Assembly: GCA_964371445.1 (NCBI GenBank)
Contig: CAYJLK010000003.1
Span: forward strand, 1,108 to 65,107
DNA from: an uncultured Candidatus Saccharibacteria bacterium
Lineage (GTDB): Bacteria; Patescibacteriota; Minisyncoccia; Phycocordibacterales; Phycocordibacteraceae
Length of the DNA stretch: 64,000 nt
Direction of reading: 5' to 3'
This document shows, piece after piece, positions 56,047 through 61,817 of this stretch. The first letter of the stretch is position 1. Each line of letters begins with the position of its first letter. The translations under genes were made by a program, and so were the position numbers. The notes under the pieces were generated by a model that was not told where the DNA came from, ran no database searches, and saw only the letters and a program-made list of their open reading frames with translations.

Positions 56047-59000
56047 CTAACGGGGTACCACAAGATTGAGGATTTTCCCCGGTACATAAATAACCCTCTT
56101 TGGCTCATGTTCGCCGAGCGCGGTGGTCACGGGCGGGAGTTTGAGCGCTTGTGCAACGGCATCTTCTTCAGAGGCATCGACAGCGAGCGTAATCGAGCCA
56201 CGACGTTTGCCGTTCACCTGTACAACAACTTCTTTCTCGGTCGCGATGGCGATGTCAGCTGTCGGCCATGCGTGCGCGTGCACACTCCCCTCTTCGCCGA
56301 GTGTCTCCCAGAGGTGCTCGGCGAGATGCGGCGCAAACGGCGCGAGCATGACGATGAGTTGCGCGAGCGCGGCCTTCGGCACGGACGGCGCCGCTTCGAG
56401 CTCGTTCACGAGTATCATAAGCGCTGCAACTGCGGTATTAAGTTTAAACCGATCTCCGTCTCCGGATACTTTCACGCTTGCCGTCGCGAGCGCCTGCTTA
56501 ATATCTTCTGGAGTATCCTCAGGCATGGATGTCGTAAGTCCATATTTCTCAACAAGACGGGTGATGCGCTCAAGGAACTTGCGCATCGATGCGACGCCAT
56601 CCAGATTCCACGGGTAGCTCCCCGGCTCGTTGTAGGGGCCGATAAAGGCGAGGTAGATGCGCACCGCGTCTGCGCCATATTTCTGCACGAACTCGTCGGG
56701 GTTCACGACATTCCCTTTCGACTTACTCATCTTCTGCCCGTCGGGGCCCATGATGAGTCCGCGGTTGAAGCGCTCGGCAAAGGGTTCGTCGAAGGGCACG
56801 AGTGCGAGGTCGTAGAGCGCCTTCATAAAGAACCGCGCGTAGAGCACGTGCATGGTGGTGTGTTCGCTCCCGCCGGAGTAGCGATTAATCGGTAGCCACT
56901 TCTTCATCATCGCCGCATCAGAAAAGTTGTGTGCGTCCTGCGGATTCAGATAACGCAGGAAGTACCACGAGGAATCTACGAATGTATCCAGCGTGTCATA
57001 CTCCGGCGTCCAGCCTTCGCCGAAGATGCGTATAACACGTTCTTTCAGCTCTTGTGAAGACGCAAGTGGCGCCTTACCCGTGGGAGTGAAGTCAACGTCG
57101 GTCGGCAAAAGCCAGGGCAGATGTTCGGCAGGTATCGCGTGCGGCTTCCCTTCGGGATCGTAGACGATAGGTATCGGACAGCCCCAGTAGCGCTGGCGGG
57201 AGACCAGCCAATCGCGGAGCCGATACATCGTCGCCTTCTCGCCGCCGACCGCCTGCACGATGTCCCATATCGCTTCTTCGTTATCCCGACCATCGAATGT
57301 ACCGGAATTGATAAGGTAACCATTTTCAACCAGTGCTTCTTCTTTTTCTAATAATTGCCAGACCTGTTTCTGATGATCGGGAGTAAGACGAGAAAGGACC
57401 TCATTCTCTTCGGTCCAGACAAGTGTATGTTTCTTCTGTTCTGAAGTATGGATTACACCCTGTTCAGCAAGACTTTCTACTTCTGCGATGAAAGCATACG
57501 TATGAGCACAGCGATTCTCTTTTTTATGAGATGCACAGTATTTCGCAGATGTTATCCAGCGAAGTCTTTTGACGATACGGACATTCTTAAGTGCAGCTTC
57601 TTCACGAATTTCGGTCAATGCAGCCTCTTCCGGAGTTTGTCCCGACTCGACACCGCCCATGATGGCAGTAGTAATTCCTTCGAGTGTCTCGTGCCAATTG
57701 AGGAGCGCGAACTTGCCGGTTGATTTATCACGTAAATGAACGATAACCGTATCACGTTTAACCTCCTCGAACCCATCTTGAGGAGGATTTTTAGAGTCGT
57801 TAGCGCACGGTACCACTACTTGCTTTATTGGTAACTGCATTTTCTGCGCGAACTCAAAGTCGCGTTCGTCGTGCGCGGGGACCGCCATTACCGCGCCCGT
57901 GCCATAGGACGCGAGGACATAATCGGCGATAAAAATAGGAATTTCTTCTTTCGTCGCTGGGTTAATCGCAGAAACACCCTCCAGCCTCACGCCGGTCTTC
58001 TCCTTGTTCTCGCTTCGCTCGCGCTCGGTCTTCTGCGCCGTCTTCTGTATGTATTCTCGCACCTCCACCGTGTTATTGATGGACTTCGTAAATCCATCAT
58101 CTGAAAGGAACGAGTGTTCGGGTGCAAGCACGACATAGGTGGCACCAAACACCGTGTCCGGCCGTGTCGTGAATACTTTAATCTTCGTGTCTCGCCCAGA
58201 AACAGATATATTGAGACTTTCCAAAACGTCGGGCTCTTCTTTGTCTGTGTAATGCTCTCTTTTTGATGTTCCCGTAACGAGCTCTGCGTCGAGGTTTGCG
58301 GCCATCTTCTCCAAATAGACAATCCGGTCTTCTTCTTTGAGATCCGAAAGTATCAGGCGTTTAGGCGCTAACTTTTTAAGTGTTTCGAAATCAAATTCCC
58401 ATGAGAACGTAGTATGGAAGTTTTTATCTTCATTACTGTGTTTCGGATCCTTCGCTGCAGCGACGAGTACGAGTTCGCGAATAGGCTTACCGTGTTTTAC
58501 CAGCGCTTTCATCGCCACTATCGCACCTAGACTATGCCCGATGAGAACAGTGTTCTTATCCATCCGGCAGTTTTCCAACACATAAGCCACTTGATCCTTC
58601 TCCGTTGGATGGTCGGTATCCGGCATTTGCGGTGCCTGCACTTCATAACCCTTATTTTCTAGTTCTGTCTTTAGCCACGGGATGAAGTTTTTGTCTGCGC
58701 GGCCAGTCCATCCGTGCAGGATGATGAAGTTTGGTTTGTCATTATTGGCAATTGAGAACTCGAGATACGCGCCTTCCGACTTTCCTATCCACGCCCGTTG
58801 CGCCGTCTTAATCTCTTCGCGCCACGGGAGCGCATCGAGACCGGTCAAAAGCCGCTCAGCATAGTCGGTAATCTTGAAGAACCACTGCGTGAGCCGCTTC
58901 TCCTCAACTTCCGTACCGCACCGCTCGCAGTGCCCGTCGATGACCTGCTCGTTGGCGAGCACGGTCTGGTCCTTGGGACACCACTTCACCGCCGCCTCCC

Positions 59001-59451
59001 GATGTTCGGCAAGCTTGTGCTCAAAGAGCTTCGTGAAGAGCCACTGCGTCCACTGGTAGTAGCCCGGGTCGCAGGCCACCACCTCCTTACTCCAATCGAA
59101 CGACGCGCCCATGCTCTTGAGCTGGGTACGCATCCGCTCCATGTTCTGGTAGGTCCACTCCTTGGGGTCGACACCGTGCTTGATCGCCGCGTTCTCAGCC
59201 GGTAATCCGAATGCGTCGAATCCTATCGGGAACAGCACATTCTTCCCGCGCATGCGCAGCAGACGCGCGTAGATGTCGGTCACAGCAAAGGCGTACCAGT
59301 GGCCGATATGCAGGTCGCCGGAGGGATAGGGAAACTCGACGAGAAGGTAATACCCCTCTTTGGACTCGTCTTTGAGATCAGTGCGGTAGAGATCGAGACT
59401 TGCCCACTTCTCTTGGGCCTTCTTCTCTATCTCGCGGTGATCATACGCCAT
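56047..59451 (-). CDS. leuS: Leucyl-tRNA synthetase carrying two extra in-frame inserted domains (alpha/beta serine hydrolase and Nudix-like), 1134 aa
   Basis: HIGH (PSGDLHIGHWYAF) and KMSKS (KMSKSKGN) present, with a CP1 Thr-rich start TTRPDTVFGATYVVLAPEH. Two ~185- and ~150-aa insertions of lower GC lie relative to the bacterial LeuRS landmarks. Confidence 0.9.
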   Translation of the reverse strand: MAYDHREIEKKAQEKWASLDLYRTDLKDESKEGYYLLVEFPYPSGDLHIGHWYAFAVTDIYARLLRMRGKNVLFPIGFDAFGLPAENAAIKHGVDPKEWTYQNMERMRTQLKSMGASFDWSKEVVACDPGYYQWTQWLFTKLFEHKLAEHREAAVKWCPKDQTVLANEQVIDGHCERCGTEVEEKRLTQWFFKITDYAERLLTGLDALPWREEIKTAQRAWIGKSEGAYLEFSIANNDKPNFIILHGWTGRADKNFIPWLKTELENKGYEVQAPQMPDTDHPTEKDQVAYVLENCRMDKNTVLIGHSLGAIVAMKALVKHGKPIRELVLVAAAKDPKHSNEDKNFHTTFSWEFDFETLKKLAPKRLILSDLKEEDRIVYLEKMAANLDAELVTGTSKREHYTDKEEPDVLESLNISVSGRDTKIKVFTTRPDTVFGATYVVLAPEHSFLSDDGFTKSINNTVEVREYIQKTAQKTERERSENKEKTGVRLEGVSAINPATKEEIPIFIADYVLASYGTGAVMAVPAHDERDFEFAQKMQLPIKQVVVPCANDSKNPPQDGFEEVKRDTVIVHLRDKSTGKFALLNWHETLEGITTAIMGGVESGQTPEEAALTEIREEAALKNVRIVKRLRWITSAKYCASHKKENRCAHTYAFIAEVESLAEQGVIHTSEQKKHTLVWTEENEVLSRLTPDHQKQVWQLLEKEEALVENGYLINSGTFDGRDNEEAIWDIVQAVGGEKATMYRLRDWLVSRQRYWGCPIPIVYDPEGKPHAIPAEHLPWLLPTDVDFTPTGKAPLASSQELKERVIRIFGEGWTPEYDTLDTFVDSSWYFLRYLNPQDAHNFSDAAMMKKWLPINRYSGGSEHTTMHVLYARFFMKALYDLALVPFDEPFAERFNRGLIMGPDGQKMSKSKGNVVNPDEFVQKYGADAVRIYLAFIGPYNEPGSYPWNLDGVASMRKFLERITRLVEKYGLTTSMPEDTPEDIKQALATASVKVSGDGDRFKLNTAVAALMILVNELEAAPSVPKAALAQLIVMLAPFAPHLAEHLWETLGEEGSVHAHAWPTADIAIATEKEVVVQVNGKRRGSITLAVDASEEDAVAQALKLPPVTTALGEHEPKRVIYVPGKILNLVVPR

Positions 59452-60457: not shown

Positions 60458-60536
60458 AAGCATGCATTATACCACAAATAAGGTGTGCTATCGGCTTCCT
60501 ACACTATCAGCCGCTCGACTTAAATGCCTATTTCAG

Positions 60537-60582
60537 CCGTGGAGGAAGACCATCACATCATCGGTATAAAAAGAGTCCCCGC
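60537..60582. repeat. Copy 1 of duplicated ychF 3'-end segment (encodes ..DVMVFLHG-stop on the minus strand) plus shared terminator half-stem
   Basis: Identical 46-mer to 61251-61296; shares the core CCGTGGAGGAAGACCAT with the authentic ychF end. Confidence 0.85.
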
Positions 60583-60620
60583 GCGAGCGCAGGGACTGAG
60601 GATGGACAAGGGGTGGATCG

Positions 60621-61142
60621 TTAGTTTGGCGCAGGAATTGGTGCGGGTTTGAGTTGGTCGTTCAACCACGTGAGTCCTCTTTCGTACCACTCCCGTGCCT
60701 TACTCTTACTCGGCGGCCGAGGAACACAGGCGCAGATGTACAGCCATATGGAAAGCGAGATCATTCCGTAGGACATCCATTGACCGCCTTTGCTTGATGG
60801 CAGTAGCCACATTAAAAATCCCATGCAACCAATAGTCATAGCGAGAACGAACCGCAGAGAAGCGTCACTCCAAGGAACGGCAAACAGTTTACCGTTCGCC
60901 AAGAATTCACTCTCTTCTTTTTCTGTACGACGAACGATACTCATCATAGAAAAAGTGTTAATGGACAACAATGCAAACATGGCGGGATCGAAATAAGATA
61001 CATTTCCTCCCCAGAAAAATACCGTGGAAGTTATCAACGTCCATTTCTGTAGTCTAAACTTCGTCAGTCCGGTGAATTGCTGGAACTTGTCGCAGAACTT
61101 CTGTGCTACAGACAGTAGCAAACTATCGAGTAATTCGACCAT
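60621..61142 (-). CDS. Hypothetical small membrane protein (174 aa), cassette B cargo
   Basis: AGAGGGAGG Shine-Dalgarno 7 nt upstream of ATG 61142; 3-4 TM helices; followed by a hairpin plus CTCTTTTTATACC terminator. Confidence 0.55.
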   Translation of the reverse strand: MVELLDSLLLSVAQKFCDKFQQFTGLTKFRLQKWTLITSTVFFWGGNVSYFDPAMFALLSINTFSMMSIVRRTEKEESEFLANGKLFAVPWSDASLRFVLAMTIGCMGFLMWLLPSSKGGQWMSYGMISLSIWLYICACVPRPPSKSKAREWYERGLTWLNDQLKPAPIPAPN

Positions 61143-61217
61143 GATCGTACCTCCCTCTCTTTTGGTTGCGTAAGGGGATATATTCCCCACCTTTATGTCT
61201 CAACGTGCTCTAAAACT

Positions 61218-61245
61218 AATATACTGAAATTTACTACTTCGTCAA
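61218..61245 (-). promoter_or_regulatory. Promoter-like element TTGACG-16-TATATT directly after the ychF-tail copy 2
   Basis: The -35 begins right after the pseudo stop codon; this is a paralogous position to the TTGACA element after the authentic ychF stop. Confidence 0.45.
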
Positions 61246-61250
61246 GTCAT

Positions 61251-61296
61251 CCGTGGAGGAAGACCATCACATCATCGGTATAAAAAGAGTCCCCGC
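61251..61296. repeat. Copy 2 of duplicated ychF 3'-end segment (encodes ..TDDVMVFLHG-stop on the minus strand)
   Basis: See 60537-60582. Confidence 0.85.
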
Positions 61297-61330
61297 CGGA
61301 GCGGGGATGAGTCGGGATGCGGCGAAACAT

Positions 61331-61747
61331 TCAGGGCATGACGAAGATGAACTCGTCATTCGGTTCGAACAAGTCGTCACCAGAACAGCTGGCGCTCCCG
61401 CTCGAAATGGTGCTCTCGCCTCTCGTAAATCGCATGATGTAGGGCGACTCTGTGCCGGGTTTGTACGGCTCCATGGCGAGATTCAATACATCACCCGGTT
61501 GCGTGTCCTTGCCGTTGCGGAGCTCGTTCATCAAGAAAAAGTGCAGCCCCCTCGGCGCATGTACGAGTCCGAGTACTGCGGCCGCCGCAACAATTGCGCT
61601 GTACGGTGCCGGTTCGTTGAAGCCGAGATCGGTCACTTTGGTCCTCGTCAGATAGTGCGGACTGCCTTCGAACCTCACACTCATCCAGATGTTGAATGCA
61701 CGCTTAACCCTCGTTTGCGGAACCTTCTGTCCTGATTGAGCTGTCAT
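61331..61747 (-). CDS. Hypothetical protein (138 aa), cassette A cargo
   Basis: AAGGGGAG Shine-Dalgarno 7 nt upstream of ATG 61747; followed by a CCCCGC-TCCG-GCGGGG hairpin plus T-run; no family recognised. Confidence 0.55.
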   Translation of the reverse strand: MTAQSGQKVPQTRVKRAFNIWMSVRFEGSPHYLTRTKVTDLGFNEPAPYSAIVAAAAVLGLVHAPRGLHFFLMNELRNGKDTQPGDVLNLAMEPYKPGTESPYIMRFTRGESTISSGSASCSGDDLFEPNDEFIFVMP

Positions 61748-61788
61748 CGAACTACTCCCCTTGTGTGATGTATCGGATACCCTCGCTC

Positions 61789-61817
61789 AAGCTAGATAGA
61801 ATCCACTATATTGTCAA
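61789..61817 (-). promoter_or_regulatory. Promoter-like element TTGACA-17-TAGCTT immediately after the ychF stop
   Basis: An exact -35 hexamer sits 1 nt after the TAA; the -10 is weak. Confidence 0.35.

Follow-up and report, generated by a model that had tools for sequence, protein, structure and literature searches.

A Nudix domain inserted in frame in the editing domain of a patescibacterial leucyl-tRNA synthetase

The leucyl-tRNA synthetase (LeuRS) gene in the 64,000-nucleotide stretch of DNA analyzed here (the window), from an uncultured Candidatus Saccharibacteria bacterium, carries a Nudix domain in frame, within a loop on the surface of the CP1 editing domain. The most probable reading, to which we assign a probability of roughly 60%, is that this domain is an optional, active ApnA/RppH-like pyrophosphohydrolase with a predicted substrate, belongs to a Nudix subfamily associated with aminoacyl-tRNA synthetases (aaRSs), and was imported into the gene by recombination. 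The host gene, its two inserts and the editing-site motifs between which they fall are as follows.

56047..59451, minus strand: leuS, an open reading frame encoding a 1134-aa bacterial-type LeuRS and hosting both inserts.
58198..58746, minus strand: first insert (residues 236-418), placed between the catalytic core and CP1; it is a serine hydrolase of the alpha/beta type and has a GHSLG elbow.
58153..58170, minus strand: editing-site threonine-rich motif TTRPDT (residues 428-433), with T428, T429, R430 and T433 invariant in an 81-sequence LeuRS alignment.
57859..57873, minus strand: editing-site HDERD motif (residues 527-531), with H527, D528 and D531 invariant; the Nudix cassette starts 16 residues downstream.
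57334..57813, minus strand: Nudix cassette (residues 547-706), consisting of an N-terminal beta extension and the Nudix fold and spanning the full length of free-standing homologues.

The motifs of the synthetic and editing sites are intact despite the inserts. The 1134-aa protein scored 881.5 bits against the TIGR00396 leuS_bact equivalog model (cut-off 548.4); HIGH (H48-G50-H51) and KMSKS (K907-S911) were invariant in the 81-sequence alignment, the TTRPDT region aligned with CP1 of Thermus thermophilus LeuRS, and the CP1 segment (residues 419-760) matched the T. thermophilus enzyme with 170.7 bits. The locus is orthologous to, and not an extra paralogue of, the leuS locus of a syntenic strain, L001, which has the same gene order and flanking DNA of 98-99.5% nucleotide identity and lacks both inserts, its LeuRS being 797 aa long. 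Core, CP1 and the motifs HIGH, KMSKS, TTRPDT and HDxRD are thus common to the window protein and canonical bacterial LeuRS (E. coli, 4AQ7/4ARC; T. thermophilus, 1H3N/2BYT), but the window enzyme is 1134 aa long as against ~800-880 aa, has a 183-residue alpha/beta hydrolase ahead of CP1, and has a 160-residue Nudix domain in place of the short loop at ~365-380 of T. thermophilus LeuRS.

The initial annotation had pointed to a long extra segment relative to E. coli and to a Nudix-like domain within it, and both observations held. The net insertion over the near-identical insert-less ortholog of L001 was 456 nt, or 152 codons. Residues 553-706 alone (57334-57795) matched PF00293 (NUDIX) with 38.1 bits (E = 1.8e-9), well above the gathering score of 21.1, over profile positions 3-129 of 134, and the same profile was matched by all 32 inserts sampled. 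The AlphaFold2 model of the isolated domain had a pLDDT of 92.4 and that of the full-length LeuRS 86.4, and the insert adopted the alpha/beta/alpha Nudix fold. The segment is a complete, autonomously folding domain of a distinct Nudix subfamily. The presence of two hydrolase-fold modules in one LeuRS, also proposed at the outset, was borne out by the first insert, which matched PF06821 with 45 bits and PF00561 with 36.8 bits.

Comparison with L001 located the cassette within a longer tract of divergent sequence.

57022..57891, minus strand: recombination tract with the Nudix cassette (codons ~521-810), 62-87% identical to L001.

The Nudix module is an optional accessory that is present or absent at the level of strains. 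Nucleotide identity to L001 was 97-100% outside codons ~521-810, and within the tract codons 751-810 encoded identical protein from DNA only 80-87% identical. Third-position GC (GC3) was 0.37 in the Nudix insert and 0.66-0.78 in the LeuRS core (0.49 in the first insert); consistent with the earlier statement that this ~480-bp stretch is the most AT-rich of the gene, the lowest GC, 0.41, fell at 57300-57599. Genomes bearing the window's Nudix subtype had 32-49% GC. The drop in identity and the low GC3 of the insert together indicate recent arrival of the cassette within a ~870-nt foreign, lower-GC leuS tract, presumably by homologous recombination. Inserts and cores were also discordant among relatives: the core of P0119 was 53-59% identical to that of the window and its insert 79% identical, while the cores of P0004 and P0005 were 71-91% identical and their inserts only 33%. 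Insert type was likewise incongruent with the core tree, a poorly resolved neighbor-joining tree.

A foreign base composition, strain-level presence or absence, and multiple copies and insertion sites in relatives might equally be expected of an assembly chimera or of a self-propagating element of the intein or transposon kind. Assembly error can be set aside because 16 contigs, drawn from several samples, yield one and the same 1134-aa protein; homologues, moreover, number in the hundreds. Against a selfish element stand the preserved reading frame and fold, and strong purifying selection (pN 0.18 versus pS 0.83 for the window insert and its closest same-type inserts, where synonymous sites are saturated, with pS 0.75-0.87, so that the comparison supports only pN << pS). 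The full protein had no Pfam match to a Hint, intein, homing-endonuclease or transposase domain, and no meaningful direct or inverted repeats, terminal repeats or target-site duplications were found at the insert junctions. With PADLOC defense models also giving no match, the transposon, intein and defense readings were dropped, and we consider an artefact or selfish element close to excluded. Scans of the window with Rfam and for tRNAs yielded nothing relevant. Taken as a whole, the pattern makes recombination between homologous but divergent leuS alleles a more probable route than transposition.

The catalytic features of the domain lie at three places.

57589..57657, minus strand: variant Nudix box (G599-L621), translation GGVESGQTPEEAALTEIREEAAL, with E605Q, R613T and G620A relative to the consensus.
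57523..57540, minus strand: X-loop segment (Y638-K643), which opens with a conserved aromatic at +17 from the box and closes with an invariant Lys.
57439..57441, minus strand: E671, a Glu outside the box conserved in 100 of 100 sequences, which may serve as a further metal ligand or as the catalytic base.

The box begins at G599 and has no deletion (G-x5-Q-x7-T-E-I-R-E-E-A-A-L), so the alignment to MutT offered in the initial annotation was out of register by one residue. Relative to GX5EX7REUXEEXGU, which the consensus of 100 insert-bearing LeuRS reproduced perfectly, the window copy keeps six of the nine specified positions (G599, E614, I615, E617, E618 and L621). The question of whether the catalytic Glu residues are intact thus has a divided answer: E614, E617 and E618 survive, whereas Q605, T613 and A620 stand in for the first Glu, the Arg and the Gly. 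Across the same 100 proteins, which form at least 12 deeply diverged clusters, the Glu triad, E671 and K643 were conserved family-wide, with G599, E614, E618 and K643 found in every sequence and E617 in 99. Column 638, 17 residues past L621, was Tyr in 64 sequences and Phe in 36. Human NUDT2 Y82 and K87 would correspond to Y638 and K643 on a profile alignment, which serves as a lead only. [quoted passage not shown]

The three substitutions raise the possibility of reduced or altered catalysis in the window copy, or of none, the fold having been retained to bind a nucleotide, tRNA or protein for the editing domain. Nudix domains with no enzyme activity are known (PMC5389931), and in the 32-member cluster to which the window insert belongs (cluster 0) the changes at 605 and 613 are fixed in nearly all members, alongside extra conserved residues (C549, C639, H642, C648 and H650) not seen in other clusters. 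Nevertheless, no member of cluster 0 departs from the metal-binding triad E614/E617/E618, from E671 or from K643, and one member, P0018, keeps both the Glu and the Arg. Positions 605 and 613, furthermore, change as a pair, co-varying as (E,R), (Q,A/M/T) or (M/L..,K), and because of this co-change and the existence of a (M/L,K) cluster also devoid of the Glu, the first box Glu appears not to be essential in the subfamily. The variant box probably reflects loss of a Glu-Arg pair and not of a metal ligand, and a pseudoenzyme is in our view distinctly improbable. Within cluster 0, the inserts had a mean identity of 71% and the cores of 68%, the window's subtype being conserved to the same degree as the LeuRS core.

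On the basis of the Glu triad, E671 and K643, invariant across diverged clusters, the domain is probably an active pyrophosphohydrolase of the ApnA/RppH-like branch. It would be metal-dependent and would act in cis on LeuRS, and its likeliest substrates would be dinucleoside polyphosphates (Ap4A, for example) or related nucleotides that are cap-like or bear a 5'-polyphosphate. Ap4A is a known side product of the reaction of enzyme-bound aminoacyl-adenylate with ATP, and such a module would destroy this by-product of the synthetase at its source. Among NCBIfam models RppH had the best affinity for 31 of 32 members, at scores never near threshold (19.3 bits for the window insert, or 18.9 for a slightly longer query, against a cut-off of 116). 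In the PDB, the sequences that matched the window insert best were AvrM14 and lupin Ap4A hydrolase, and its best structural match was 2azw, whose protein is uncharacterized.

The ApnA/RppH/NudH-type enzymes NUDT2 (human), Rv2985 (M. tuberculosis), Ndx1 (T. thermophilus), AvrM14 (flax rust) and RppH (E. coli) have, as here, the Glu triad in their Nudix helix. They also share with the window domain the X-loop aromatic ~17 residues past the box (PMC5389931). They are, however, free-standing proteins, whereas the window domain lies inside a synthetase; identity to them was 13-21%, all curated family cut-offs were missed widely, and in the window copy, unlike in them, three box residues (first Glu, Arg and Gly) are missing.

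The Nudix domain was found at the same site in 100 of the 120 closest LeuRS, and relatives' LeuRS carried one to three Nudix copies at three sites. Of 152 proteins analyzed from a search with the Nudix profile (its 150 best representatives, with two members of clusters added), 114 were LeuRS. A word-indexed search with the insert alone recovered two fragments only, a limit of sensitivity and not a sign of rarity, since full-length and exhaustive profile searches found hundreds of homologues. The arrangement, described at first as highly unusual, is so across life as a whole but not in its own lineage. It had also been called undescribed, and our literature search likewise found no paper on a Nudix insert in LeuRS; the cassette is common in Patescibacteria, with no description in the papers found.

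Members of the same subfamily were inserted in five distinct prolyl-tRNA synthetase (ProRS) proteins of DPANN-like archaea. Of the free-standing members, P0152 ends 1 nt ahead of a leuS start, P0158 lies within a MetRS...LeuRS gene cluster, P0195 adjoins Fpg, a repair enzyme for oxidized guanine, and others occur in unrelated gene contexts. JGI names the standalone members 'MutT'. A further Nudix gene, immediately ahead of leuS in L027, was considered as a link to the subfamily and rejected, as it belongs to a different one (15 bits). The subfamily is, in sum, repeatedly associated with aaRSs in ultra-small prokaryotes.

These same surroundings bear on whether the domain has any mechanistic tie to leucylation at all. 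It might be a general sanitizer of the nucleotide pool, MutT-like or an NTP/dNTP pyrophosphatase, hitch-hiking in a constitutive, essential gene whose product offers permissive surface loops, which would spare a minimal genome the cost of a promoter and a gene. The near-identical L001 does without the insert, and LeuRS of relatives carry other hydrolases as well, a Ham1/ITPase insert in P0162 and a HAD insert in P0078, which, with the alpha/beta hydrolase of the window, fit a non-specific 'carrier' role of LeuRS. The unrelated contexts of other free-standing members and the JGI name agree with this account, and the proximity of P0195 to Fpg points to oxidized-guanine nucleotides instead of ApnA. 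Random hitch-hiking, however, does not predict that one subfamily should recur in class I LeuRS, in class II ProRS and beside leuS; the window insert scored only 12.9 bits against the TIGR00586 MutT 8-oxo-dGTPase model (cut-off 97.9), and the X-loop Tyr and the structural neighbors favor ApnA/DIPP/RppH types. We regard hitch-hiking as possible though unlikely, and favor the ApnA/RppH-like pyrophosphohydrolase tied to aaRSs.

Several known systems resemble this arrangement in part. The bacterial ProRS INS editing domain and its free-standing relatives YbaK/ProXp are one hydrolytic module that occurs inserted or separate, sometimes as a neighboring protein, with a patchy distribution among related lineages, as does the Nudix subfamily; INS, however, has a YbaK-like fold, hydrolyzes aminoacyl-tRNA esters and has a demonstrated proofreading role, whereas the window insert has a Nudix fold, a predicted pyrophosphate-cleaving activity and a putative role. 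An essential class I synthetase is likewise joined to an unrelated catalytic domain in the IleRS-GNAT fusion (NCBIfam NF040702); the LeuRS partner differs from it in kind, is internal to CP1, can be present in more than one copy and at more than one site, and is polymorphic between strains. In the animal LysRS-Ap4A-NUDT2/HINT axis a synthetase makes Ap4A and a Nudix enzyme removes it, but that is a regulatory pathway of separate proteins, whereas LeuRS and Nudix are covalently joined and their link to Ap4A is a predicted one.

The occurrence of one subfamily in LeuRS, in ProRS and in a gene abutting leuS suggests a tie between Nudix domains and synthetase side reactions that is unexamined in prokaryotes. 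It is rather doubtful that the subfamily amounts to a new cis clean-up module for adenylate by-products, an exchangeable leuS cassette reaching as far as DPANN ProRS; if it did, the cassette would be a trait common to both ultra-small symbiont groups and passed between domains of life. The architecture itself, undescribed but widespread in Patescibacteria, is that of an essential translation enzyme whose inserts are enzyme folds and not linkers, and whole catalytic domains can apparently enter and leave an essential gene via homologous recombination through conserved flanks. Two strains 98-99.5% identical in DNA that differ in both inserts offer a natural experiment on aminoacylation, editing and Ap4A metabolism. 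Among matches named by NCBI, insert-less LeuRS were annotated as 'leucine--tRNA ligase' and insert-bearing LeuRS as 'class I tRNA ligase family protein' or 'alpha/beta fold hydrolase', so that automated metabolic reconstructions could wrongly call leuS missing.

The single ORF that holds the Nudix insert encodes a bacterial leucyl-tRNA synthetase (LeuRS), as its score against TIGR00396 indicated (881 bits; cut-off, 548), and its HIGH, KMSKS, TTRPDT, and HDERD motifs were intact and invariant among relatives. As the initial annotation had proposed, two hydrolase-fold modules interrupt the gene:

Features of leuS in the window
56047-59451, minus strand: leuS, bacterial leucyl-tRNA synthetase (single ORF, 1134 aa; TIGR00396)
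57334-57795, minus strand: Nudix insert, residues 553-706 (Pfam NUDIX match to this segment alone)
57589-57657, minus strand: Nudix box peptide, starting at G599
58198-58746, minus strand: first insert, alpha/beta serine hydrolase, residues 236-418 (183 residues; PF06821/PF00561, GHSLG elbow)

The first module lies between the catalytic core and CP1, and the Nudix insert replaces, by alignment, the CP1 loop at approximately residues 365-380 of T. thermophilus LeuRS. Residues 553-706 alone matched Pfam NUDIX at 38.1 bits (E = 1.8e-9; gathering score, 21.1 bits) over nearly the entire profile. AlphaFold2, supplied with 32 diverse homologous inserts, modeled residues 545-712 with a pLDDT of 92.4, a pTM of 0.87, and the strand-helix-strand order expected for Nudix; a Foldseek search of the PDB returned 507 matches at E <= 0.001, and all matches listed were Nudix structures. 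Both inserted modules were confidently folded in a full-length LeuRS model (pLDDT, 86.4). The CP1 insert is real and has a Nudix fold, in agreement with the initial proposal. Misassembly, which had been a concern, is excluded because exactly the same 1134-aa protein was encoded on 16 contigs from several ENA samples (longest contig, 723 kb), and an artefact or selfish element is essentially excluded as an explanation. Neither junction repeats (repeat search) nor mobility genes (Pfam scan of the protein) were present.

The architecture had been judged highly unusual, which holds across life but not within this lineage: a Nudix domain sat at the same site in 100 of the 120 nearest LeuRS from a collection of 5.8 billion proteins, and where sources were named these were Patescibacteria (Paceibacterota/Minisyncoccia, Kaiserbacteria, and similar). 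Five architectures were found:

LeuRS architectures by insert content
Insert-less: ~790-830 aa
Nudix only: ~940-970 aa
Alpha/beta hydrolase only: 974-1042 aa
Alpha/beta hydrolase with Nudix: 1124-1134 aa
HAD plus Nudix: 1188 aa

When 1.84 billion representatives were searched exhaustively with a profile, 168 proteins were recovered at E <= 1e-30; the analysis covered the top-scoring 150 together with two cluster members. LeuRS accounted for 114 of the 152, with one Nudix copy in 101, two in 11, and three in 2, spread over three different sites. The other 38 were non-LeuRS by sequence test; a few mid-length proteins with an editing-domain remnant resembled LeuRS fragments, and most were complete free-standing proteins of ~150-200 aa. 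Free-standing homologues aligned across the entire cassette, N-terminal extension included, so the cassette amounts to the product of an entire Nudix gene. Patescibacterial LeuRS is a hotspot of module insertion: relatives (P0162, P0078, P0129, P0130, P0140, P0159) also showed a HAD domain, as many as three Nudix copies, or, in P0162, a Ham1/ITPase domain between the catalytic and anticodon-binding domains. An unidentified insert of ~230 residues occupied a third site (P0013, positions ~464/482), and in relatives one or two Nudix copies can take the place of the first insert at its site.

A strain with the gene order of the window (L001, a JGI metagenome locus) was 98-99.5% identical in the DNA around leuS, yet its 797-aa LeuRS lacked both inserts. 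DNA identity between the two fell to 62-87% over codons ~521 to 810 and then returned to 97-100%; the divergent stretch includes codons 751-810, which encode identical protein from DNA only 80-87% identical. Such a pattern marks an imported allele rather than a local insertion event. The GC minimum of leuS (0.41) falls in the Nudix insert region, earlier noted as the most AT-rich part of the gene, and GC3 was 0.37 in the insert versus 0.66-0.78 in the LeuRS core. This foreign base composition, which extends to the left flank, together with the lower GC of genomes bearing the same subtype (32-49%; window, 56%), polarizes the event: it was the window's lineage that made the gain. Nudix inserts formed at least 12 clusters, the larger only 24-31% identical to each other while their LeuRS cores were 70-78% identical, and insert types were interspersed on the core tree. 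The homolog P0119 shared 53-59% identity with the window in the core but 79% in the Nudix insert; for P0004 and P0005, the core was 71-91%, the alpha/beta-hydrolase insert 84-86%, and the Nudix insert only 33% identical. These comparisons mark the Nudix cassette as exchangeable and as recently gained in the window's lineage. The first insert, likewise missing from L001, also had a foreign composition (GC3, 0.49).

Across 100 insert-bearing LeuRS the consensus is a textbook Nudix box, with G599, E614, E618, K643, and E671 invariant and E617 (99/100), W679 (99/100), and W586 (98/100) nearly so. The sole correction to the initial annotation concerns the register against MutT: the window's box begins at G599, reads G-x5-Q-x7-T-E-I-R-E-E-A-A-L, and has no deletion. 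The catalytic residues E614, E617, and E618 are kept, but Q605, T613, and A620 deviate, and the window's subtype (32 sequences) shares Q605 with A/T/M613 and often A/S620. This degenerate box and the subtype's Cys and His residues could indicate a pseudoenzyme or binding module, an improbable reading given the invariant Glu triad. Positions 605 and 613 co-vary [(E,R), n = 44; (Q,A/M/T/Q), n = 36; (M/L/S..,K), n = 19], which suggests a lost interacting pair rather than a lost metal ligand. Within the subtype, the insert was conserved to the same degree as the LeuRS core (mean identity, 71% versus 68%), and pN was 0.18 with pS saturated in the Nudix insert comparison. Conserved in this subtype alone were C549, C639, H642, C648, and H650 (about 57502-57807, minus strand; motif YCASHKxxNRCAH plus VVVPC), which could form a metal site or disulfide.

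With regard to substrate, the residue 17 positions past the box is a conserved aromatic, Y638; at this X-loop position, Tyr marks diadenosine-polyphosphate hydrolases (PMC5389931). The nearest characterized structures were Rv2985 diadenosine polyphosphatase, the decapping enzyme AvrM14, DIPP1, and the Ap6A hydrolase Ndx1; a PDB profile search placed AvrM14 and lupin Ap4A hydrolase at the top, and RppH models were the best NCBIfam match for 31 of 32 inserts, all sub-threshold. Synthetases make Ap4A from enzyme-bound aminoacyl-adenylate and ATP. With this chemistry and the specificity evidence combined, the most economical mechanism is that the Nudix domain would act in cis as a hydrolase of synthetase by-products such as Ap4A, or of related polyphosphate or cap-like nucleotides. 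We assign the overall picture a probability of roughly 0.6, with the specific substrate class (ApnA-like by-products, or polyphosphate or cap-like nucleotides) a tentative and rather doubtful element of it.

Free-standing members also occurred beside synthetase genes. P0152, whose locus shares synteny with the window, ends 1 nt ahead of where a Nudix-bearing leuS begins, and MetRS and LeuRS belong to the co-directional cluster in which P0158 sits; other members were neighbors of Fpg or had unrelated contexts.

Loci with free-standing members
L027, 482-8549: MetRS, TatD, Nudix (the subfamily member), YfbR-like HD, a second, unrelated Nudix, and LeuRS, co-directional
L029, 3016-4513: Fpg DNA glycosylase gene, followed 4 nt later by the subfamily member

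The Fpg neighbor, like the Ham1, HAD, and alpha/beta-hydrolase inserts in LeuRS, would fit a generic nucleotide-sanitizing enzyme hitch-hiking in a permissive LeuRS loop, but this is unlikely, as the same subfamily recurs in two unrelated synthetases. The second is prolyl-tRNA synthetase (P0272), with the domain between its anticodon-binding and C-terminal domains; five distinct archaeal-type ProRS from different sources carried it (P0272, P0281-P0284). Their insert-less relatives bear the names Nanoarchaeota or Woesearchaeota, a pattern suggestive of exchange of the subfamily between CPR bacteria and DPANN archaea.

LeuRS and Nudix are each well known, and synthetases bearing accessory domains are a familiar theme. 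In the full text searched, which leaves out most subscription journals so that absence is not proof, no Nudix-in-synthetase architecture was described (LeuRS or other synthetases; Patescibacteria, CPR, DPANN), in keeping with the initial view that it was undescribed, and a comprehensive Nudix review (PMC5389931) makes no mention of tRNA synthetases. New here are the internal placement of a Nudix domain, the occurrence of this architecture at several sites, in several copies, and in several hosts, and its behavior as a cassette that differs between strains.

Beyond the two insert tracts leuS itself appears mosaic: codons ~70-207 (window 58750-59300) were just ~93-97% identical in DNA to L001 with nearly identical proteins, and the DNA immediately upstream of leuS was 99.5-100% identical. 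A stretch of ~1.3 kb between the DUF5671 and YchF genes (~60500-61800; e.g., ORF 60621-61190, minus strand), whose two small ORFs (189 and 138 aa) had no Pfam match, has no L001 counterpart and constitutes a second strain-level indel near leuS. Among the LeuRS search hits with NCBI names, insert-bearing LeuRS appeared as 'class I tRNA ligase family protein' (one, 'alpha/beta fold hydrolase') and insert-less relatives as 'leucine--tRNA ligase', a split that looks like a systematic annotation weakness.
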